Below the pieces are notes generated by a model. That model was not told the DNA's origin. It searched no databases and was given only the letters and a program-made list of their open reading frames with translations. The position numbers and the translations under genes are program-made. From sequence record PQ850598.1: a stretch of DNA of 46,037 bases. One strand, written 5' to 3'. Positions 4,397 to 44,559 of this stretch are shown piece after piece. This DNA comes from Escherichia phage ClaudiaMuster_Bas77. Positions within the stretch are counted from its first letter, which is position 1. The number at the start of each line of letters is the position of its first letter.

Positions 4397-5809
4397 ATGT
4401 CAAAAATTGATGCATTAAACGCCTATATACGCGACCGCGTGGCGAACAATAACCGGGCGCTTCAGCAGCAGCGGCTTTGTGCTGGCGGGAAGAATCTGGA
4501 CCAGAAACGTGAGTTCATGTGGAAGGAACTGGGCTACCCGCAGGAAATAACCGCCGAGATGTTCCGCTATGCATACGAGCGACATCCAGCCGCCGCCGCT
4601 GGCATTAACCGCATTATTAATAAATGCTGGCAGAAATACCCAGAAGTGGTTGAGGATGGCGAGGATGACAAGAACTCAACGTCGTGGGAGCTGTCCATCA
4701 ACGACATGATGAAGCGCGCCTACCCGTTCATCAAGGAGGCTGACAAGCGCAACGCCATCAACCGCTATTCCGCTGTTATCCTGCAAATCCGTGACGGCAA
4801 ACAGTGGAGTGAACCGGTAGACATCACCAAAACACGCCGCATTAAAGATAAATCCATTGTTCGCTTTATCCCAGTATGGGAAGAGCAACTCCGCGTCAGC
4901 GCATGGAATAACGATGAAACAAGTGAAGACTACGGCATGCCTGAGATGTACGAATATCAGGAAAGCGCCGTAGAGGATTTCGATAGCGACGGCAAGCCTG
5001 AGCGTTCCGTGCAGATTCATCCTGATCGCATTATCATTCTGGCAGAGGGTAGCTTCGATGGCAGTATGTTCAGTGGCATCCCGATGCTACGTGCTGGCTA
5101 CAACAGCCTTATCGACATGGCTAAGGTTTCCGGTAGTTCAGCAGAAGGCTTCCTGAAGAATGCCAGCCGTCAACTGGCTGTTAACTACACGAAGGACAAC
5201 GTAACGCCAGCAAGCCTTGCACAGTCAATGGGTGTATCTCAGGATGAGCTTATTGACATCATGAATGACAATATCGAGATGCTGAATTCTGGCATTGACG
5301 CTGCACTATTTAGCATGGGCGCCGAGACTCAGGTGTTATCCGTAACGCCAGCTGACCCGAAACCAACATGGGAAGTGGCTGCCAACCAGTTCGCTGCATC
5401 AATGGCGCTTCCGTTCACCGTCATTTTCGGGCAGCAAACCGGACGCCTTGCGAGTGATGAAGACAAGATGCAGGAGGCGATGACTGCCAAGCAGCGCCGA
5501 GAAACATGGGTGGATTATGTTATCTCAATGTTCGTTGAGCGCATGATTCAGTTCGGCATCGTCGATAAAGCACCGGCAAATGGCTACAAGGTTAAGTGGG
5601 ACGACCTGCTTGCTCCATCAGAGCTGGATAAGGCGGAGTTGCTGTCTAAGCTCGCCACTGCGAACAAGTCGTTCTTTGATGCTGGTCAATCTGCGTTGCT
5701 TACCGTCGATGAGGCTCGCGGCATGGTTGGTATGGAGCCGATTGAACTTGATGAAAGTTATCGCGAAGACACGCCACCGGAAGATGAAAATGAAGATACT
5801 CCGGTTTAA
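4397..5809 (+). CDS. portal protein
   Basis: 470-aa ORF following terminase, acidic C-terminus ([14 protein letters not shown]), overlaps start of Mu F-like head morphogenesis gene; size and position typical for a portal. Confidence 0.8.
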
Positions 5810-8932: not shown

Positions 8933-9168
8933 AAAAGCTAAGCAACTGGCTGCTCGGCGCGTGGATTTCATTCTGCTCACTATTGCAGCTATGGCCTGAT
9001 GCAATGATGCACGTGTGGGTAATGATGCCGGACGACCTGAAAGCGGCGCTACCGCCAATCGTGGTCAAAGGTGTAAGCTACTCCATCATGCTGGTTGGTA
9101 TTCTCGGAAAAATGCACGGCATGAGGAAGGAGAACCGGAGGCTGCGCAATGATGTCAATTCTCGCTAA
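8929..9168 (+). CDS. putative holin (two TM helices)
   Basis: 79-aa ORF between endolysin and spanins; TM segments LLGAWISFCSLL and SYSIMLVGILG, basic C-terminus. Confidence 0.5.
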   Translation: MKKLSNWLLGAWISFCSLLQLWPDAMMHVWVMMPDDLKAALPPIVVKGVSYSIMLVGILGKMHGMRKENRRLRNDVNSR

Positions 9169-9640
9169 ATACTGGCGACCACTGGCAATTATTATAATTG
9201 TTGTCTCTGGCGCGTTGTGGGCGCGTAGCGAAATCATCAGCTACGGCGACCAACGATACGCAGAAGGCAAATCCCAAGCAATCGCCGAACAGAAGGCCGC
9301 AGACGAACAAGAGGAGCAACGACGCAATGCAGAACTGCAAAAGATTCAGGCTGACGCACAGCAAAGGATTGACGCTGCGCGCAATGATGCTGTCAATGCT
9401 GCTGCTAAGTCTGGCAGGTTGCAGCAACAGCTCGCAAATATCCGCAAGCAGCTCGTCGGATATTCCACCGCTGAGTCCATTGGCAATCCAGCCGCAGAAA
9501 CCGGAGTTTTGCTTGGAGACGTGCTCGGCAAATCTGTCGAAAGAAATCGACAACTGGCAGATTATGCTGACAGGGCAAGAGAGGCAGGATTAGCGTGTGA
9601 GGCGCAGTATAATTCGCTGCGTAATAAAAAAGCCCCGTGA
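9149..9640 (+). CDS. i-spanin (Rz-like)
   Basis: N-terminal TM helix (PLAIIIIVVSGALWA) followed by Q/A/E/R-rich coiled-coil; last gene of lysis cassette. Confidence 0.7.
   Translation: MMSILAKYWRPLAIIIIVVSGALWARSEIISYGDQRYAEGKSQAIAEQKAADEQEEQRRNAELQKIQADAQQRIDAARNDAVNAAAKSGRLQQQLANIRKQLVGYSTAESIGNPAAETGVLLGDVLGKSVERNRQLADYADRAREAGLACEAQYNSLRNKKAP
9384..9593 (+). CDS. o-spanin (Rz1-like), embedded in +1 frame of Rz
   Basis: Internal ATG in track ORF 9198..9593; lipoprotein signal MMLSMLLLSLAGC (lipobox LAGC) then Pro-rich periplasmic segment; wholly inside the Rz gene. Confidence 0.65.
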   Translation: MMLSMLLLSLAGCSNSSQISASSSSDIPPLSPLAIQPQKPEFCLETCSANLSKEIDNWQIMLTGQERQD

Positions 9641-9658
9641 TGGGGCTTGTGTTTAATT
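9629..9658 (+). terminator. rho-independent terminator
   Basis: AGCCCC gtgat GGGGCT hairpin followed by TGTGTTTAATT at the end of the lysis cassette. Confidence 0.6.
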
Positions 9659-9779
9659 GGTTTGTTAAGATTCTTCCCGCTGCTTCCACATCTGTTTCAG
9701 CTGGAAATAAGCATACGCTTCATCACCATCTTTCGCATTGCGCTCCATTTGCTCACACCATGCCGATGGTTTTGGCGGC

Positions 9780-10085
9780 TCACTCTGCTGGCAATGTTGT
9801 TGGCTCATTAACAGATTCCTCAACCGCAGATTCAACGATGCGCACCAGTGAGCACTCAAGATTCGGTGCATTGTAATTACCAGCCAGAAACAGAACACTG
9901 CCGGTGCTGATTAATACCTGCTTTGCGTTCGCCTGTGACAGATTCTGCACGATGAATTGCGCTGTTTCCGTGCCGATTTTTAGCACTGCGCTGCCGTCGC
10001 TGTTCAGTGATACCGGTTGTGCTGAAGTGTCGGTAATATTGGTGTAGCTCGCGTTTCGTTGCGCGATTGTTATGTCTGTGAACAT
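9780..10085 (-). CDS. hypothetical protein (101 aa)
   Basis: Track ORF; start coupled to upstream stop. Confidence 0.4.
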   Translation of the reverse strand: MFTDITIAQRNASYTNITDTSAQPVSLNSDGSAVLKIGTETAQFIVQNLSQANAKQVLISTGSVLFLAGNYNAPNLECSLVRIVESAVEESVNEPTTLPAE

Positions 10086-10086
10086 A

Positions 10087-10308
10087 TTAGCCTCTTACGT
10101 TTAATTTGATTTTTCCATCCACGTCGCGTGATGCACACTCAACAGTGATTGTTAACTTGGTGATCTCTTCGACGTCTGCATCAAGAATCAAGCGGACGCA
10201 ACCACCAACTATTCTACCATCCTGATCAACAACGCGAATTTTATCATCGACTCTTTCAACGTGGAGCCAAACCTTTTCTTCATCACAGCCATTATTGAGA
10301 ATTGACAT
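10087..10308 (-). CDS. hypothetical protein (73 aa)
   Basis: Track ORF; ATG overlaps upstream stop. Confidence 0.5.
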   Translation of the reverse strand: MSILNNGCDEEKVWLHVERVDDKIRVVDQDGRIVGGCVRLILDADVEEITKLTITVECASRDVDGKIKLNVRG

Positions 10309-10739
10309 TATTTAATCTCCAGTTCTTTTGCGCGAATTGCGCTGTCAATGATGTCTTGCAAATCCTGTTCGCGCGATTTATGTCCGCGCTCGCCAGCCTG
10401 TAATGCCTTCTTGATTAAGTGCTGCAATGCAGGGTTGGTGACATTCCACGCCATGAGCACATCGTATACGTCAACAAATATACCCGGCTTAATCTCGTGC
10501 AGGTATTTGTTATCAGCCTCAGGAGCGCCAATGCAATCATTGAGGTCTTGTTCGTCGGTAATTGGCTCGCGGTATGCAATAACAACATCCCCGCGACCCT
10601 CAATCACTTCAATGCGATCAGCATAATATTTGCTTAGATAGAAAATCTCACCAGTCCTTTCTGACTTAACTACAAGATAAGCCGCGTTATGGCCAGCAAA
10701 ATCATCCTCATAACCTTTCAGATATTTCCACTTTTTCAT
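10308..10739 (-). CDS. hypothetical protein with DUF3310-like C-terminal segment
   Basis: 143-aa track ORF; C-terminal DVLMAWNVTNPALQHLIKKALQAGERGHKSREQDLQDIIDSAIRAKE resembles the DUF3310 phage family signature as I recall it. Confidence 0.45.
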   Translation of the reverse strand: MKKWKYLKGYEDDFAGHNAAYLVVKSERTGEIFYLSKYYADRIEVIEGRGDVVIAYREPITDEQDLNDCIGAPEADNKYLHEIKPGIFVDVYDVLMAWNVTNPALQHLIKKALQAGERGHKSREQDLQDIIDSAIRAKELEIK

Positions 10740-10930
10740 TTCATCGTCACCCGATTATTTTCATCAACATTAAAATTCGCACGAATCAAATCATACATGT
10801 CATTTTTAGGCATATCAGCCAGCGCCACATAGCAACGGGCAAAGTAGCGAACATCACGGAGTGTCAGCGGCTGCCGCTTCTCCACAATGCTGGTGATAAT
10901 GTCCATCGGCTCGCGTCGTGGTCTTGGCAT
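10736..10930 (-). CDS. hypothetical protein (64 aa)
   Basis: Track ORF with AAGGAG RBS; first gene of the minus-strand cassette. Confidence 0.5.
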   Translation of the reverse strand: MPRPRREPMDIITSIVEKRQPLTLRDVRYFARCYVALADMPKNDMYDLIRANFNVDENNRVTMK

Positions 10931-10954: not shown

Positions 10955-11020
10955 ATCTTGACGTTTCTACATCACTTAGTCAATACTTATTGACGTAGAT
11001 TGTACCACAACGGAAAAGGT
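10955..11020. promoter_or_regulatory. divergent regulatory region with GTTTCTACATCA and TTGACGTAGATTG motif copies
   Basis: Lies between divergently oriented gene starts (10930 minus, 11029 plus); contains two TTGACG hexamers and both motif variants; exact -10 elements ambiguous. Confidence 0.4.
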
Positions 11021-11028
11021 GATGTGGA

Positions 11029-11227
11029 AATGCGATACAAAGAAATAGCAGCGAGATACCAGAAAGAAGTGCGCGAGGTTATGGAAATCCTTAACGTTCG
11101 CGAAGATACCATTAAGTATGTGGAAACTGCCATGTGTTCACTTGCTCTTGAAGCGGAGGTTGCAGGTCGTGAAAAGGCTGACGAACTTATATCTGCGTTG
11201 GTTTATAGTTCAACCAGTAACGGTTGA
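11029..11227 (+). CDS. hypothetical protein (66 aa)
   Basis: Track ORF 11000..11227 (TTG); ATG at 11029 with AAGGTGA RBS. Confidence 0.5.
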
Positions 11228-11287
11228 ATATGAAGGTTATCTGTGCGTTGAGCACGTTGTTATCAAGTTCTACGGGAGAAATTATAA

Positions 11288-11482
11288 ATGGCGCATGACG
11301 AACTGTACGAAGAATCGTTAATCCAGCGACTGAATGAAGTTGAGCGCACACGCGAATGGCTGGAGTGCGAATTGCGAGAGGTGCGCAATCGACTGCAACG
11401 CAAACGCAGTCAACAGAAAGATGTTATCGACTGGTCTGGCAATGCACCTAAATTTAACAACATTGGAGAATGGTTGAAATGA
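11288..11482 (+). CDS. hypothetical protein (64 aa), coiled-coil
   Basis: Track ORF; GGGAG RBS. Confidence 0.5.
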   Translation: MAHDELYEESLIQRLNEVERTREWLECELREVRNRLQRKRSQQKDVIDWSGNAPKFNNIGEWLK

Positions 11483-11700
11483 GAAAGTTCAGTACGTTAG
11501 TTGATTTAATTTTTGCTGACATAAGTGAGGATAACGCCAGAAGCGAGAAGTCAAAAAATCAGCGTCAGGATATTACGTTTCGCACACTGCTTAAGCAATC
11601 AATGCGCAATAAGAAGGAGTGGAGATACAGGCGCGACAGAGTTCTGATAAGACTGTGCAAATTGAATATGAATAAGATACTTAAGGATATGACCAAATGA
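11470..11700 (+). CDS. hypothetical basic protein
   Basis: Track ORF; alternative ATG at 11479 has better RBS spacing. Confidence 0.45.
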   Translation: MVEMRKFSTLVDLIFADISEDNARSEKSKNQRQDITFRTLLKQSMRNKKEWRYRRDRVLIRLCKLNMNKILKDMTK

Positions 11701-11945
11701 CAGCACCACATATGCCAATGATGAATGATAGCGGGTTGCTGTGCTGCCCATTCTGTGGCGGGAATGAAGTTTACTTGAATATTGATTTAGTGCTTGTATC
11801 TGTCGAATGCGGAGATTGCTGTGCAAGTTCAGGTGAATGGGGTTCACCGGAAACCGCTGTCAGGCACTGGAACACCCGCAACGGACACCTATACACCGCA
11901 GACGACTTCAATCAGGCAGCAGAGGAGCGTGATTATGGACTATAA
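11697..11945 (+). CDS. Lar-like restriction alleviation zinc-ribbon protein
   Basis: 82 aa; CCPFCGG ... VECGDCC ... AVRHWNTRN matches the Lar family pattern (CPFCG ... C..C ... WN.R) as recalled. Confidence 0.55.
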   Translation: MTAPHMPMMNDSGLLCCPFCGGNEVYLNIDLVLVSVECGDCCASSGEWGSPETAVRHWNTRNGHLYTADDFNQAAEERDYGL

Positions 11946-12423
11946 ATCACAAATCATGCGCGTGATTATGAATCACCCCGGTTCAACGCGCGCATATATT
12001 GAGAAGCATTGCGGAGGAAAGCATTCAAGCACCACAACGCATCGTTTGCATGAGATGCTTGCGCTTGGATTCATTCGCCGTGAGAAGTCCGTGATTCGCG
12101 GTGGGAAGTGGCAGTATAAATATTTCATCTCTGATGATGCAGCTGGTATTGATGATGCTATTAAGTGCCATTTGCTTGATAACGCTGGCGCAGAGGTGAA
12201 AGAAATCAGCGTAGCCACTGGCATTGATTACCGAATCGTGAAAAGCCGCATCCGCATTATGTTTCATAACGGTGATGTAACGCGAAGATATGACCACCAC
12301 AAGAAGCTGTGGCGTTATTCTTGGCATGAGAAGGAAGTTAACGTCAGCAACCTGTTTAATTCACTTCTTCGCAATGTAAGAGGTCGTCATGGGGAAAGCC
12401 AAACGCAAGAAGCAAGAGTATGA
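11935..12423 (+). CDS. hypothetical protein, possible winged-helix DNA-binding protein
   Basis: Track ORF 11794..12423; ATG at 11935 (MDYKSQIMRVIMNHPGSTRAYIEK); helix-turn-helix-like segments; weak call. Confidence 0.4.
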   Translation: MDYKSQIMRVIMNHPGSTRAYIEKHCGGKHSSTTTHRLHEMLALGFIRREKSVIRGGKWQYKYFISDDAAGIDDAIKCHLLDNAGAEVKEISVATGIDYRIVKSRIRIMFHNGDVTRRYDHHKKLWRYSWHEKEVNVSNLFNSLLRNVRGRHGESQTQEARV

Positions 12424-12565
12424 GCCATTACCGCCATGCGAAATGTCAGGAATGCCGCAGCAGGAGGATGTGATTCTCACCGAGGCTGAGTGGCGCAAGG
12501 TGGCAAGAGTGCAAATCATGTTCCGCAAACTTGCTGAGGACGTACTAAATGAGATGGGCTATTAA
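12389..12565 (+). CDS. hypothetical protein (58 aa)
   Basis: Hand-translated: MGKAKRKKQEYEPLPPCEMSGMPQQEDVILTEAEWRKVARVQIMFRKLAEDVLNEMGY. Confidence 0.35.
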   Translation: MGKAKRKKQEYEPLPPCEMSGMPQQEDVILTEAEWRKVARVQIMFRKLAEDVLNEMGY

Positions 12566-12896
12566 GCATAAATCTGGCAGAACTCTGTTTATTACATCGG
12601 ATGAGTTTATTGCCAATAACCGTAGAAAGATGGGCTGGATAGTGGAGGAAGTGAAGATGACGAGTAGAGAGCAGTTTGAGGAGTGGGCCAAGGAGAACGG
12701 AATGAGTCTTGTTTATGGTGACTGTGATTATGTGTATTCGCCAACCGTATGGGCGTGGAAAGCATGGCGAGCATCGCGCTCAGCAATTGAGATTGAATTG
12801 CCAGCGGTAGAGATTGGTTATGAAATGATGGAATACTACGAGCCTCAACAGGTTATTGAGGCAATCAAACAAGCAGGCTTAAAGGTGAAAAAATGA
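12549..12896 (+). CDS. hypothetical protein (115 aa)
   Basis: Track ORF. Confidence 0.5.
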   Translation: MRWAIKHKSGRTLFITSDEFIANNRRKMGWIVEEVKMTSREQFEEWAKENGMSLVYGDCDYVYSPTVWAWKAWRASRSAIEIELPAVEIGYEMMEYYEPQQVIEAIKQAGLKVKK

Positions 12897-13219
12897 TTAT
12901 CCCATTAAACGACATTATGAAAGCAGACATCATTCAGCTTGAAGATTATGACATGCAACTGGCGTTTGAAATAGAAACTGTTGAGCGTCAACTGCAATAT
13001 GCTGATAAGAAGAATGATCGCATCTGGCATGAGAAAGCGCTTAAAGCACGGGACCACATGAAGCGCACGCGCGCACTTATTAAAACTCGTCTGGATAAGC
13101 TGTATTTTGGCGAGGAAAGATATTTGCATGGCGCAATTCTGGCGCAAATCCGCAAGGAAATGCCTATTGGTAAGTTCATGTCATACGTGCACCGGGCAAA
13201 GCAGGAGGCTGGGTTATGA
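12893..13219 (+). CDS. hypothetical protein (108 aa)
   Basis: Track ORF; ATGA overlap with upstream gene. Confidence 0.5.
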   Translation: MIIPLNDIMKADIIQLEDYDMQLAFEIETVERQLQYADKKNDRIWHEKALKARDHMKRTRALIKTRLDKLYFGEERYLHGAILAQIRKEMPIGKFMSYVHRAKQEAGL

Positions 13220-13404
13220 GCGGCCCAAAATTTCCAGAGCTGCCTGTTGAGGTTCAGGTTGCATTGATTAATGCAGCAAGTGCAATGGCGACAAAGAAGA
13301 TTGAGGCAATAGGAAGCGATTACAACAGGAGCATAGACTGGTTTCAGAGGGAGTATCAAAAAATCTGCGACGCACTCTACAAAGAAAACAGGGGTAGACC
13401 ATGA
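13216..13404 (+). CDS. hypothetical protein (62 aa)
   Basis: Track ORF; coupled to neighbours. Confidence 0.45.
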   Translation: MSGPKFPELPVEVQVALINAASAMATKKIEAIGSDYNRSIDWFQREYQKICDALYKENRGRP

Positions 13405-13547
13405 TCCAATTACTGTGGATATTATCAGCATACGCATTCGCGAGAGTATTTGAGGCTGATACTCTGTACCAGATGATTTGCTATGGCGCTCTGTTCTGTC
13501 TCTCTGGTGCCGCGCTTGCATTTATGGATGATGTGATTTCAGACTAA
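13401..13547 (+). CDS. small membrane protein (48 aa)
   Basis: Hand-translated: MIQLLWILSAYAFARVFEADTLYQMICYGALFCLSGAALAFMDDVISD; ATGA overlap with upstream stop. Confidence 0.4.
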   Translation: MIQLLWILSAYAFARVFEADTLYQMICYGALFCLSGAALAFMDDVISD

Positions 13548-13741
13548 CTCCGTATATCTTTTGTTCATTATGGGCTGCTATCATTTAATCAGGAGGTAGC
13601 CCATGAATATAATCCCCATCACTTACTTTCTTACGCTATACGCACTTACCAATTCTCCATTGTTTGCACTGGCTACCGCCTCATGGTGCTATATCTCCCT
13701 GTGTTATAATTCGACCACAAACTAACCGTGGAGAGTTAACC

Positions 13742-15621
<1,880 letters not shown>

Positions 15622-19738: not shown

Positions 19739-19778
19739 TTCATCACCTCTAACATTTATTGTTGTTTCTACGTCACTA

Positions 19779-23022: not shown

Positions 23023-23739
23023 ATGGCTATTTGTGCAAATGATAAAGGCGTTCTGGTCGGTCGCATGACCAGACTGTTCCTTGCTGAAGGGTGCGGAGAC
23101 GCAGTTCCGGAGGCGGGAGACTGGAAGTATTTAGGCTCAACCACCAGTAAGGGTGTTGACTACTCGCCGCAGACTACCACGTCGGAGGCAGATACCACTG
23201 GCGGTTTTGTTTCCACTCTCGTTACCAGCTCTGATATGACCATCAGCGCAGAGGTGGAAATCCGCAAGAATGACCCGAGCGATGAGTTTGGCTTCCATCG
23301 TCTGGTTGAGATTTACGCCACCGAACTGAAAGCTCGTCGCCAGCCTTCCTTGTGGGTGCGTCAGGTGACTGGTGCGACTATCGTTACGGCGTATTGCAAC
23401 ATCACCAGCATCAGCTACGAAGGTGGTACGAACGATATCGTTACTGGCAGCCTTGAGTTCAAGGTTTACGATTCTGATAGCGTTACCGTCGAAAGCCTTG
23501 AGCCTCTGGCATTCACTACAGACCTGCCATCAACTGGCACGGCTGGCAGCCCGTTAACTGTTGCTGTTGAAGGTGGTGTCGCTCCTTACACTTATGTATG
23601 GCGCAAAGATGGCGTGGTTGTCGGCAGCGAATCAGGCGCGTCTCTGGCAAGCCCTGCCGCTGGCGTGTATACCGTCACGGTGACTGATTCGTCTACTGAC
23701 CCTGAAATTATTATCAGCACGGCTTGCACTGTGTCCTGA
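23023..23739 (+). CDS. major tail protein with C-terminal Ig-like domain
   Basis: 238 aa; located just before chaperone and tape measure genes; C-terminal Ig-like segment (TAGSPLTVAVEGGVAPYTYVWRKDGVVVGSESGASLASPAAGVYTVTVTD). Confidence 0.65.
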   Translation: MAICANDKGVLVGRMTRLFLAEGCGDAVPEAGDWKYLGSTTSKGVDYSPQTTTSEADTTGGFVSTLVTSSDMTISAEVEIRKNDPSDEFGFHRLVEIYATELKARRQPSLWVRQVTGATIVTAYCNITSISYEGGTNDIVTGSLEFKVYDSDSVTVESLEPLAFTTDLPSTGTAGSPLTVAVEGGVAPYTYVWRKDGVVVGSESGASLASPAAGVYTVTVTDSSTDPEIIISTACTVS

Positions 23740-23744
23740 TAAAT

Positions 23745-23778
23745 AAAAAAGCCCCGGAAGGGGCTTTGTTTTATTCTT
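23745..23778. terminator. bidirectional rho-independent terminator
   Basis: AAAAAA GCCCC ggaa GGGGC TTTGTTTTATT. Confidence 0.65.
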
Positions 23779-38082: not shown

Positions 38083-38509
38083 CCAGCAAGCCAAAATAGA
38101 AAAGTGTGGCTTTTTTTAGTTCATCAAGACCGTAAGCGATGGCTGCATAATGACCAAGCCTGCACATCTCTGTTAGAACTGCTGATTGATCCTTGCTCAC
38201 TCTGCTCTTACTTTTGTCACGGCGCTTTGCCTCAATCATTCCGCAGCAGTGGTTCGCACCCGGAGTCATTATTACGTTATCGCCTATTCCAGGCTTAACC
38301 CCCATCTTCTGGCGCTTCAGTACGAACTGGACGCGGCTGGATGTTCCTGTTTCATTCGGGACGTGAAACCATAGCACATCAGGGAAACAGTGTTGCATCC
38401 ATGTACCGTAACCCATCTGGTCAGTCTCCTCTTTTGGGCATTCGCCGCGATAACCGCTATCAAATACCCATATACCGCTATCAAGCTGCTTCACTTTGTT
38501 CTCCTGCAA
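38069..38509 (-). CDS. VRR-NUC domain nuclease
   Basis: 146 aa; PGIGDNVIMTPGANHCCGMIEAKR fits the VRR-NUC catalytic pattern (D ... ExK). Confidence 0.55.
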   Translation of the reverse strand: MQENKVKQLDSGIWVFDSGYRGECPKEETDQMGYGTWMQHCFPDVLWFHVPNETGTSSRVQFVLKRQKMGVKPGIGDNVIMTPGANHCCGMIEAKRRDKSKSRVSKDQSAVLTEMCRLGHYAAIAYGLDELKKATLFYFGLLDDVD

Positions 38510-44530: not shown

Positions 44531-44559
44531 TTGACGTAGAAACATCATTGATGTAGATT
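44531..44559 (+). promoter_or_regulatory. sigma70-like promoter (TTGACG-17-TAGATT)
   Basis: TTGACG, 17-nt spacer, TAGATT about 30 nt upstream of the 44590 ATG; contains GACGTAGAAAC and GATGTAGATTG motif copies. Confidence 0.55.

Follow-up and report, generated by a model that had tools for sequence, protein, structure and literature searches.

What does a block of very short genes do between the lysis and head modules of a lytic phage, and does the Lar-like protein that it encodes act against restriction? We addressed this question in Escherichia phage ClaudiaMuster_Bas77 (Bas77), a lytic Skatevirus-like siphovirus, using a stretch of 46,037 nucleotides that is almost certainly its complete genome (record PQ850598.1; the whole stretch is referred to as the window) and a comparison of 76 related loci, 72 of which were informative for the Lar-like gene, g04. 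The block comprises the following genes:

11030..11227, plus strand: g01, 65 aa, PHROG 37091 (E 5e-47), the variable first slot
11288..11482, plus strand: g02, 64 aa, PHROG 15697, in 72 of 76 loci and both lineages
11479..11700, plus strand: g03, 73 aa, basic, DUF7301 (Pfam PF23975; 83.5 bits, gathering score 27)
11697..11945, plus strand: g04, 82 aa, Lar-family zinc-ribbon protein (Pfam PF14354), in 72 of 72 informative loci
11935..12423, plus strand: g05, 162 aa, putative winged-helix protein (PHROG 1687 'MarR', E 5e-57)
12389..12565, plus strand: g06, 58 aa, PHROG 17117, in 32 of 76 loci
12549..12896, plus strand: g07, 115 aa, two-module mosaic, PHROG 343
12893..13219, plus strand: g08, 108 aa, helical, PHROG 14549, in 74 of 76 loci and both lineages
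13216..13404, plus strand: g09, 62 aa, variable slot, PHROG 16865, in 9 of 76 loci
13401..13547, plus strand: g10, 48 aa, hydrophobic, PHROG 18423, in 35 of 76 loci
13603..13725, plus strand: g11, 40 aa, hydrophobic and without a charged residue, annotated in Bas79, in 75 of 76 loci

A first-pass annotation, made from the letters alone, had described ten genes of 48-163 aa beginning at 11029 and had proposed conservation in related phages as a check. All ten exist: they are present in the list of open reading frames and as CDS in the 97.8%-identical phage Bas79, and their order and overlaps are kept in about 70 genomes. The details required amendment. The first ATG is at 11030, the largest protein (g05) has 162 aa, and a conserved eleventh gene, g11, belongs to the block. 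Overlaps of 4-35 nt at eight of the nine junctions fit translational coupling; the exception is g01/g02, which lie 60 nt apart and are uncoupled. The block was also placed between the lysis cassette and the scaffold gene; between that cassette and the block are five small genes on the other strand, which make up the second arm of the divergent unit and all come from PHROG families without an assigned function:

9630..9648, both strands: bidirectional terminator-like hairpin (terminator scan; 7-8 bp stem plus T run)
9665..10930, minus strand: five small genes, m5 to m1

The hairpin closes the lysis cassette on the plus strand and the small-gene arm on the minus strand; a similar copy is found at 23742-23772. 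Within the arm, m1 (10736-10930; 72 of 76 loci) is the sole gene spanning both lineages, and m2 and m3 are hypervariable across the 76 loci. The idea that the small open reading frames are chance or misannotated, and the block mostly non-coding spacer, deserves practically no credence: the block proteins are very short, and g11 has no PHROG or Pfam match besides lacking charged residues, but each of g01-g10 matches a PHROG family (E 2e-22 to 2e-68, except g04 at 5e-14), gene order and overlaps are conserved as described above, and the flanks of g04 as well as its individual cassette types give dN/dS values of 0.13-0.17, so that for g01-g10 this explanation is already refuted.

Apart from g04 and g05, the genes had been held to lack a recognisable family. 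This is correct except for g03, whose DUF7301 match is full-length (K+R 20 versus D+E 9; 37 of 76 loci); the others belong only to unnamed phage families. Searches of Pfam, NCBIfam and PADLOC gave no significant match to known anti-defence or defence families among the block proteins other than g04. Genes kept in both phage lineages (g02, g04, the g05 family, g08 and g11) are interspersed with slots whose occupant varies from phage to phage. The first slot is never empty, g01 filling it in 22 of 76 loci and another gene elsewhere; the g09 slot likewise carries alternative genes in other loci, and g06, which is without a known family, is confined to the Salmonella/E. coli lineage. The product of g02 is probably a coiled coil, with weak coiled-coil noise as the only Pfam result, and g10 reaches a maximum Kyte-Doolittle score of 1.64. 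No Pfam match was obtained for g08, whose homologs are unnamed proteins confined to the same phage group. In g07, N-terminal residues 1-36 are joined to a domain of about 78 aa that is usually a stand-alone small protein; many of its 168 relatives (E<=1e-3) are 75-90 aa long and align to residues 37-114. No Pfam family was found for g07 and the homolog search returned only unnamed phage proteins, in which the core domain is sometimes fused to a dATP/dGTP pyrophosphohydrolase domain or to DUF551, a domain common in lambdoid phages. Among near-identical phages g07 is just 49-66% identical.

The signals that may control the block lie at its two ends:

10958..10987, plus strand: candidate rightward sigma-70-like promoter of the block (TTGACG, 18 nt spacer, AATACT; promoter scan)
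10999..11028, minus strand: leftward promoter-like site for m1 (TCCACA, 18 nt spacer, TG-n-TACAAT, an extended -10)
13562..13609, plus strand: hairpin between g10 and g11 (RNA fold -18.4 kcal/mol, z -1.7)
13700..13710, plus strand: perfect, invariant extended -10, TGTGTTATAAT, inside the 3' end of g11

The block had been credited with its own divergent promoter, and a promoter-like divergent region is indeed conserved in 72 loci; these assignments are consensus matches, and the scan found promoter-like sites to be no commoner than in shuffled sequence. In the rightward site, TTGAC and AGTCAATAC are invariant or nearly so (72 loci, both lineages), and the spacer contains the 9-mer TCTACATCA (10966-10974). 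The architecture TTGnnG-TT-TCTACRTCA-N7 followed by a -10-like hexamer recurs at 19767 and 40442, and a motif copy at 44532 on the minus strand has upstream context in common with it. The presence of TCTACRTCA in the spacer is shared by the block promoter and a site upstream of the primase operon. The leftward site overlaps the 5' leader of g01; directly after its extended -10 comes CTACGTCA, the motif copy at 10991-10999 on the minus strand, and the -10 in relatives is TGTTATAAT, TGGTAGAAT or TGATACAAT. From these promoter-like motifs we infer that the block may be expressed early. At the other end, the hairpin between g10 and g11, whose stem bases and AGGAGGTAGC are conserved in both lineages, covers the strong and invariant ribosome-binding site of g11 (AGGAGG-N7-ATG) and would sequester it. 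It lacks a U tract and does not qualify as a canonical terminator; the record of phage ASO78B labels it a terminator. The extended -10 TGTGTTATAAT is identical in 63 of 63 loci from both lineages, has no other exact copy in the genome and lies 32 nt upstream of the head-operon gene at 13742-15154, for which it may provide a separate promoter.

The first-pass annotation had seen here the composition of an early host-takeover or anti-defence region. The block is both mosaic and dispensable, as an accessory region for host interaction should be. Loss of genes was reconstructed from the deposited genomes of viable, genome-reduced mutants of the related phage seszw. Orthologs of g02, g03, g04, g05 and g07 are absent from seszw_300L.2, those of g05 and g08 from seszw_140S, and the slot-1 gene and the g05 ortholog from seszw 200L; g06 is kept in all four reduced genomes examined. 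Spontaneous loss of genes 3-10 has been described in seszw (PMC9825161). These mutant genomes show that lytic growth under laboratory conditions does not require the block genes. Early or accessory regions of other coliphages, such as the T7 class I genes, Ocr among them, and the lambdoid nin/ea regions, are similarly built of short non-essential genes that overlap, form mosaics and follow host-type promoters, and some of those genes serve counter-defence. Unlike these, the Bas77 block lies between the lysis and head modules and not at the first-entering genome end, and searches matched none of its members to Ocr, to ArdA or to another anti-defence family of Pfam or PADLOC.

The block itself is already annotated in sister phages. 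Bas79 (PQ850629), Bas80, Bas81, Seszw_1 (NC_054642), IME207, KFS-SE2 and others have the same gene order, and their records call the g04 counterpart a 'Lar-like restriction alleviation protein' (the Bas79 protein is 100% identical to g04) and the g05 counterpart 'MarR', winged-helix or 'transcription factor'. Public records and the BASEL paper (PMC11990801) contain no discussion of the block, of the cassette polymorphism presented below, of the promoters or of the promoter-like element embedded in g11.

We then considered whether g05 has the DNA-binding look that had been ascribed to it. This is plausible: in addition to the PHROG 1687 match, which establishes family identity while the name 'MarR family' is itself annotation, sub-threshold winged-helix matches were obtained on both halves in three diverged orthologs. 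In Pfam, MarR_2 scored 18.5 against a cut-off of 27, and in the orthologs HTH_24 scored 21.3-21.8, again below its gathering score (21.9). One ortholog also matches MarR, IclR and AsnC-type HTH families below threshold, and residues 63-135 of g05 match PHROG 142 (Ren-like; E 6e-6). The AF2 model, from a shallow alignment, has a mean pLDDT of 51 and an unreliable second half, but residues 1-65 are predicted as helix-helix-helix-strand-strand (pLDDT 65-72); the PDB sequence search returned the winged-helix protein 1sfx at an E-value of only 0.9. Taken together, g05 is probably a tandem winged-helix (MarR-like) DNA-binding regulator.

For g04, the name 'Lar-like anti-restriction protein' had been proposed, together with a profile search to check it. 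The search confirmed the family. PF14354 scored 34.2 bits against a gathering score of 28.6, with residues 14-62 of g04 covering profile positions 3-58 of 58; PHROG 599 matched at E 5e-14, and PF14354 is present in 50 of 57 g04 homolog clusters. The zinc-ribbon pattern (CPFCG...C..C...WN.R) was also correctly recognised, its four cysteines and WN.R aligning with E. coli RalR/Lar. In an alignment that includes RalR, C20, C38, C41, W58, N59 and R61 are invariant and C17 nearly so. The AF2 model of g04 (pLDDT 82) predicts a beta-hairpin ribbon and a helix at residues 51-59 (pLDDT about 90), and its nearest viral structure models are Lar-family; PDB sequence and profile searches found generic zinc ribbons only, and weakly (aIF2-beta, the ClpX zinc-binding domain). 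These results place g04 firmly within the zinc-ribbon family that Pfam names Lar. It does not reach the narrower models, scoring 35.2 bits on NCBIfam TIGR03655 (the anti_R_Lar subfamily; cut-off 39.6) and 18.3 bits on the RalR equivalog NF007260 (cut-off 113). With Lar/RalR of the E. coli K-12 Rac prophage, g04 has in common the PF14354 domain, the ribbon followed by the WN.R helix, a small size, a phage-derived carrier and 33% identity over 45 aa. The two differ in length (RalR has 64 aa and lacks the conserved N-terminal MTAPHMPMMNDEGLL and C-terminal NGHLYTADDFNQAAEERDYGL extensions of g04) and in charge, RalR being basic (+5) and g04 acidic (-9; mean -6.7 across 65 variants). They also differ in that the core of g04, unlike that of the Rac protein, is highly polymorphic:

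11757..11867, plus strand: hypervariable zinc-ribbon cassette in g04, residues 21-57 (flanked by the CPFC knuckle and WNTR)

This centre averages 34% pairwise identity, as opposed to 82-88% in the flanks, and 26 cassette types occur among 73 genomes. Three types are common to both lineages. One cassette is identical in two lineages (100% aa, 95.5% nt) between flanks that are 76-80% identical at the nucleotide level, and the genes adjoining g04 stay 90-100% identical while cassettes move independently. Within a cassette type dN/dS is 0.17 (0.13-0.17 with the flanks included); across types the centre gives 0.35, with synonymous sites saturated. On this comparison, at least 26 diverged cassettes, each under purifying selection, are exchanged between phage lineages. 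The novelty here is a Lar-like zinc-ribbon core that takes the form of swappable cassettes between conserved flanks. Two other sources of the variability were considered and rejected. A diversity-generating retroelement is contradicted by the lack of a template-like cassette repeat in the genome and by the nature of the alleles, which are old, diverged and under purifying selection and do not reflect adenine-directed mutagenesis. Positive selection by point mutation as the main driver is contradicted by the within-type dN/dS and the between-type synonymous saturation.

What, then, might g04 do? RalR has been reported to be the toxin half of a type I toxin-antitoxin pair and to act as a non-specific DNase (PMC4041452; RefSeq annotation), and g04 could be a similar small nuclease that degrades host DNA during takeover. 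We find this very improbable, as the negative charge of g04 and its variants is unfavourable for DNA binding, the score on the RalR equivalog model is only 18 bits, and a hypervariable core would be unexpected in a non-specific nuclease. Moreover, RalR is partnered with the antitoxin sRNA RalA, whereas Rfam and tRNA scans of the whole window gave no matches, hence no RalA-like or other known antitoxin RNA; this last argument is weak since Rfam may hold no RalA model.

Alternatively, g04 could be a zinc ribbon that associates with nucleic acids or a polymerase and serves regulation or replication, with no part in defence. This would agree with the generic zinc ribbons found in the PDB, with the neighbouring putative DNA-binding protein g05 and with the 'zinc-binding domain of primase-helicase' feature that the LPST10 and LPSTLL records carry somewhere in the block. 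The variability would then represent co-variation with another variable phage gene. However, the structural matches are weak and generic, g04 is acidic and is dispensable together with g05, and its cassettes move independently of the adjacent, nearly invariant genes. We consider such a role improbable.

The reading suggested by the name is that g04 is a classical alleviation protein of the Lar/Ral type, acting on type IA HsdM (e.g. of EcoKI) such that faster methylation of unmodified phage DNA results in less restriction and more modified progeny. Membership of the Pfam Lar family and the motif in common with RalR/Lar speak for it. [quoted passage not shown] Ral, which belongs to the early region, is like g04 a small accessory siphovirus protein dispensable for growth, but it has no sequence or fold relationship to g04 and is a single conserved protein where g04 is an allelic series. 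Plating data exist for Bas77-80, all four of which carry the Lar-like gene: with EcoKI, for which there is one site, the efficiency of plating was 0.02-0.2, and with EcoCFT_I, for which there are two or three, it was about 1e-4 to 1e-3; the type II and III systems tested restricted these phages strongly as well (PMC11990801). Since Ral acts on type IA only, restriction by EcoCFT_I and by the type II and III systems would not speak against alleviation, and the EcoKI test is a weak one because the Bas77 genome has one EcoKI site versus 6.5 expected. Nevertheless, four phages with a Lar-like gene and a single site are restricted 5-50-fold by EcoKI, about what an unprotected single-site genome gives. 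In addition, g04 falls short of both the RalR equivalog and the Lar subfamily models, its charge is opposite to that of RalR, and a single conserved target would leave 26 diverged cassettes unexplained. Classical alleviation is consequently unlikely. Of the proposed name, the Lar family stands; the anti-restriction part finds no support in the subfamily scores or in the plating of the carrier phages, which both type I systems tested restrict.

We cautiously favour, as the explanation of the whole, a compact divergent accessory unit in which g04 is a protein-binding inhibitor and g05 a regulator. Host RNA polymerase would read the eleven small genes from the conserved sigma-70-type promoter at about 10958-10987, and the hairpin together with the separate invariant promoter at 13700-13710 would insulate the block from the head genes. 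The g04 protein would use its variable ribbon face to recognise a polymorphic host protein; homology makes a type I restriction-modification subunit a candidate, but the partner could just as well be another defence protein. Each cassette would be effective only against certain host variants, which would account for the lack of protection against the two type I systems tested. The hypervariability could equally mean that the protein is a target of host sensing and not an inhibitor. A further idea, possible but doubtful, is that the ribbon is a swappable specificity module with each cassette matched to a variant of a polymorphic host defence protein. The conserved N- and C-terminal scaffold would present one of dozens of old functional cassettes, directed for example at the product of a type I hsd allele or at a target so far unlinked to Lar, and phages of Salmonella, E. 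coli and Klebsiella would trade these cassettes by recombination in the conserved flanks.

Lar-family proteins are labelled 'restriction alleviation' in many phage genome records. The label appears to rest largely on one genetic study of Rac prophage Lar from 1995, reportedly that of King and Murray. A conflicting report of 2014 described DNase activity of RalR (Guo et al., PMC4041452), and in the literature Lar-like proteins of phages receive annotation-level mentions, the exception being a hint that the Bas63 homolog matters under some conditions in strains that carry type IV restriction systems. Our results counsel caution in annotation: the Lar label is correct at the family level, but since the carrier phages are clearly restricted it should not be read as a phenotype. 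Bas77, a phage of the BASEL collection, can be grown on E. coli K-12 and comes with quantitative defence-sensitivity data, and its relatives naturally provide at least 26 variants of the cassette in backgrounds that are nearly identical; the target and specificity of Lar are thus directly testable by cassette swaps. If the ribbon does prove to be a specificity module, the Lar family would gain its first described natural allelic series, and with it a direct handle on what its members actually bind.

The morphogenesis genes of Escherichia phage ClaudiaMuster (Bas77; PQ850598.1) are interrupted by the small-gene block. The surrounding gene order bears this out, in agreement with the first-pass annotation, which had placed the block within the structural region:

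1185-2678, large terminase
4397-5809, portal
9149-9640, Rz-like spanin, last gene of the lysis cassette
9630-9648, both strands, bidirectional terminator found by a terminator scan
9665-10930, minus strand, five small genes (m5 to m1), then the plus-strand block
11030-13547, plus strand, ten small genes (g01 to g10)
13603-13725, plus strand, g11, 40 aa, with an invariant AGGAGG-N7-ATG, present in 75 of 76 related loci
13742-15154, 470-aa head-module protein (PHROG 760, function unnamed)
downstream of it, head decoration protein, major capsid protein, neck, tail and a replication module (minus strand)

The 470-aa protein, called the scaffold in the first-pass annotation, is labeled hypothetical, coat protein or prohead protease in relatives. 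The Bas77 group consists of Skatevirus-like small siphoviruses whose infection needs the O16 O-antigen. Among phage-collection records, the nearest match is sister phage Bas79, with which the region shares 97.8% identity; the tailspike N-terminus, MATTPTNKPIPSEDPRDLKF, agrees with the ClaudiaMuster row of the alignment in PMC11990801 and differs from the Bas79 row. Two similar AAAAAAGCCCC...GGGGCTT hairpins (9623-9653 and 23742-23772, 81% identical) are likely factor-independent terminators. The first closes the lysis and minus-strand accessory genes, and the second lies just 3' of the major tail protein gene (23023-23739).

All ten small plus-strand ORFs are present in the window and all are annotated in Bas79. 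The block begins at 11030 and not, as first given, at 11029. Translational coupling had been proposed throughout; neighboring genes do overlap, by 4 to 35 nt, at eight of the nine junctions, but g01 and g02 are separated by 60 nt. Nine of the ten genes have PHROG matches at E-values of 2e-22 to 2e-68, and the Lar-like g04 has one at 5e-14. The genes are real and syntenic, and a non-coding artefact can be dismissed for g01 to g10. The control sequences are conserved.

Every gene of both arms of the divergent unit was scored by tblastn, together with ORF clustering, across 74 related viral loci anchored on the 470-aa head protein. The loci fall into two lineages: A, with a head protein identity of at least 88%, comprises phages of Salmonella, E. 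coli and Shigella; B, at ~79% and including locus L032, suggests Klebsiella phages (cf. a vB_KpnS_ZX4 protein). The block is conserved in related phages, with m1, g02, g04, the g05 family, g08 and g11 common to both lineages; the positions of g01, g03, g06, g07, g09 and g10 are slots whose gene content differs from phage to phage. Most genes of lineage A share 90-100% identity with their counterparts in the window, the exceptions being g04 (55-63%) and g07 (49-66%). The minus-strand genes m2 (10308-10739) and m3 (10087-10308) are likewise hypervariable, and their variability among near-identical phages equals that of the Lar-like gene; in m2 the N-terminal half varies and the C-terminal module is common to seven different PHROG families.

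Apart from the Lar-like and putative DNA-binding genes, the block had been described as lacking recognisable families. This stands for g08, whose homologs are confined to this phage group, and for a domain of g07, and falls for g03, which is a DUF7301 protein. The g07 protein (12549-12896) consists of an N-terminal module of 36 residues fused to a domain of ~78 residues, without a Pfam family or named function, that mostly stands alone in proteins of 75-90 aa; this domain is sometimes fused to a DUF551 or a dATP/dGTP pyrophosphohydrolase domain. Both g10 and g11 encode small hydrophobic proteins, and the g11 peptide, with two Cys and zero charged residues, had no match among PHROG or Pfam families. 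PADLOC returned zero matches among the block proteins.

The assignment of g04 (11697-11945) to the Lar family was upheld by profile search: it passes the Pfam Lar_restr_allev cut-off (34.2 bits vs 28.6), and its PHROG match is to family 599. It falls below the cut-off of the NCBIfam Lar subfamily (35.2 vs 39.6) and far under that of the RalR equivalog model (18.3 vs 113). In alignment with RalR (Lar), the K-12 Rac prophage protein (NC_000913), g04 shows 33% identity across 45 residues, with all four cysteines and the WN.R motif in register. AlphaFold2, run on a 57-sequence alignment, gave a confident zinc ribbon plus helix (pLDDT ~90 for residues 10-65); the viral models nearest to it are of proteins annotated as Lar-family, and PDB searches found no Lar structure. 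Unlike RalR, g04 has conserved N- and C-terminal extensions, and its net charge is -9 (mean -6.7 over 65 variants), whereas that of RalR is +5.

The core of this zinc ribbon is polymorphic, exchanged between phages and under purifying selection. The variable segment is:

11757-11867, plus strand, hypervariable centre of g04 (residues 21-57), with conserved flanks

Lineage A sequences share on average 34% pairwise identity across the centre, as against 82% and 88% across the two flanks. There are 26 centre types in 73 genomes, three of them common to both lineages. The exchange is best seen between L008, a lineage A locus, and L074, of lineage B, whose centres have 100% protein and 95.5% DNA identity while their g04 flanks show 76-80% DNA identity; conversely, the window and L008 have head proteins that are 99% identical and g04 centres that are only 24% identical. 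Within a type, the dN/dS of the centre is 0.17, equal to that of the flanks, and between types synonymous sites are saturated. From this swap, the low dN/dS within types and the saturation between them, we conclude that the compared cassettes are functional alleles of long standing, which recombination within the conserved flanks has carried between phages. Fast point-mutation evolution of the centre is rejected as the main driver on the same dN/dS and saturation. A diversity-generating retroelement was also rejected, because the genome contains zero template-like repeats.

A single-site genome without protection is expected to suffer a drop of ~5-50-fold on EcoKI. Classical alleviation of type IA restriction is one alternative role for g04, and since Ral-type alleviation is restricted to type IA enzymes (PMC12707154), EcoKI is the relevant test. 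Plating efficiencies (EOP) were taken from the BASEL raw data (S1 Data of PMC11990801):

Bas77: EcoKI, 1 site, EOP 0.08 and 0.1; EcoCFT_I, 2 sites, EOP 6e-4 and 1e-3
Bas78, Bas79 and Bas80, each: EcoKI, 1 site, EOP 0.02-0.2 (range over the three); EcoCFT_I, 3 sites, EOP 1e-4 to 1.3e-3 (range over the three)

In that study the carrier phages were restricted by the tested systems of types I, II and III, those of types II and III bringing the EOP of Bas77-80 down to 1e-5 to 1e-7. The published EcoKI plating of these wild-type phages, a drop of 5-50-fold, gives no sign of protection, but with only one site it is a weak probe of anti-restriction. The single EcoKI site (AACN6GTGC) of the whole genome, at 38162-38174, compares with 6.5 +/- 2.6 expected from shuffles, which suggests avoidance of type IA sites. 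A second alternative is a RalR-like nuclease, RalR having elsewhere been reported to act as a DNase toxin (PMC4041452); a third is a zinc-ribbon factor acting outside defence. In phage Bas63, a Lar homolog was of conditional importance, in strains that carry type IV restriction systems (PMC11482910).

In the Skatevirus seszw, 53 of 81 genes could be removed, and genes 3-10 were also lost in a spontaneous deletion (PMC9825161). These correspond to the slot-1 gene and the orthologs of g02 to g08. Four deposited genome-reduced mutants (L079-L082) were aligned to the wild type (L023, MH791410); all are viable and lack the following:

seszw_300L.2: orthologs of g02, g03, g04 (Lar-like), g05 and g07
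seszw_170S: orthologs of g02, g03, g04 and g05
seszw_200L: the slot-1 gene and the g05 ortholog
seszw_140S: orthologs of g05 and g08

Growth on the laboratory host thus does not require most of the block, genes common to both lineages included. This is compatible with an accessory role without identifying it. The orthologs of g06 (12389-12565 in the window) and g11 (13603-13725) are whole in all four reduced genomes. That of g10 is complete in three of them and has lost a part in the fourth, while its neighbors are deleted; in this small sample of four genomes, g06, g10 and g11 may have an importance beyond their size. In seszw_200L (L081, MZ375333.1; 2980-4220, orthologous to 13742-15154), the loss of 38 bp breaks the head-module gene into two ORFs, of 69 and 325 aa. 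The N-terminal part of the protein may be dispensable, or an internal start may serve to express the remainder.

The block's own putative control signals lie in the 99-nt gap between m1 and g01, whose conservation exceeds that of the flanking genes across both lineages; the copies of the 9-mer are listed for the whole genome:

10958-10987, plus strand, rightward promoter-like site (TTGACG, 18 nt, AATACT)
11007 to 10999, minus strand, leftward promoter-like site (extended -10, TG-n-TACAAT)
2726, 8117 (minus), 8146, 10966, 10991 (minus), 19767, 19798, 24736, 28695, 38073, 40442, 44532 (minus) and 44549 (minus), copies of the 9-mer TCTACRTCA

The predicted start points of the two promoter-like sites almost coincide, so that RNA polymerase at one should occlude the other. 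The genome holds 13 copies of TCTACRTCA, where chance would give 0.63. One copy lies within the spacer of the rightward promoter, and a second, inverted, adjoins the -10 of the leftward one. The 9-mer recurs in two set arrangements: in one it lies inside a promoter spacer as TTGnnG-TT-motif, and in the other its first base is also the final T of a -10-like hexamer. Most copies stand at the heads of transcription units, the one at 44532 (minus) upstream of the primase operon. It probably marks a shared phage promoter class or the operator of a phage regulator. This sharing of promoter context is the sole, indirect pointer to the early timing ascribed to the block.

Downstream, a conserved hairpin (13562-13609) between g10 and g11 sequesters the strong ribosome-binding site of g11. 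A perfect extended -10, TGTGTTATAAT, lies at 13700-13710, inside the 3' end of g11 and 32 nt upstream of the first head gene, and is invariant in 63 of 63 loci of the two lineages; it is likely a head-operon promoter embedded in coding sequence. Given this hairpin and the invariant TGTGTTATAAT, the block is probably a transcription unit of its own and the head operon has a separate promoter.

The view that g05 (11935-12423) looks like a DNA-binding protein is reasonable, if short of proof. Its whole length matches PHROG 1687 ('MarR family'), and its second half weakly matches the Ren-like PHROG 142; its Pfam MarR_2 score is sub-threshold. In two diverged orthologs (50% and 37% identity) the second half matches HTH_24, at most 0.6 bits from the cut-off, and in one of them the first half also matches MarR and IclR-type families. 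The AlphaFold2 model is poor (mean pLDDT 51), with a winged-helix topology in the first 65 residues. On the strength of these matches and this topology, we regard g05 as a probable tandem winged-helix protein. Together with m1, it is a candidate binder of the TCTACGTCA sites and a candidate regulator at TCTACRTCA.

The block and its Lar-like label were already public, with the identical protein annotated in Bas79; as a reading of a phage accessory region, the first-pass annotation is therefore correct but routine, and its functional claim is unproven. In our literature searches we found no description of the cassette polymorphism of the Lar-like core, of the acidic character that sets g04 apart from RalR, or of the block's promoter and motif architecture. 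In the mechanism that we propose, host polymerase would transcribe the block from its own promoter, g05 would bind DNA, and g04 would bind a polymorphic host protein through the variable face of its ribbon, with an allele-specific effect. The finding would gain in interest should the g04 cassettes prove to be specificity determinants.
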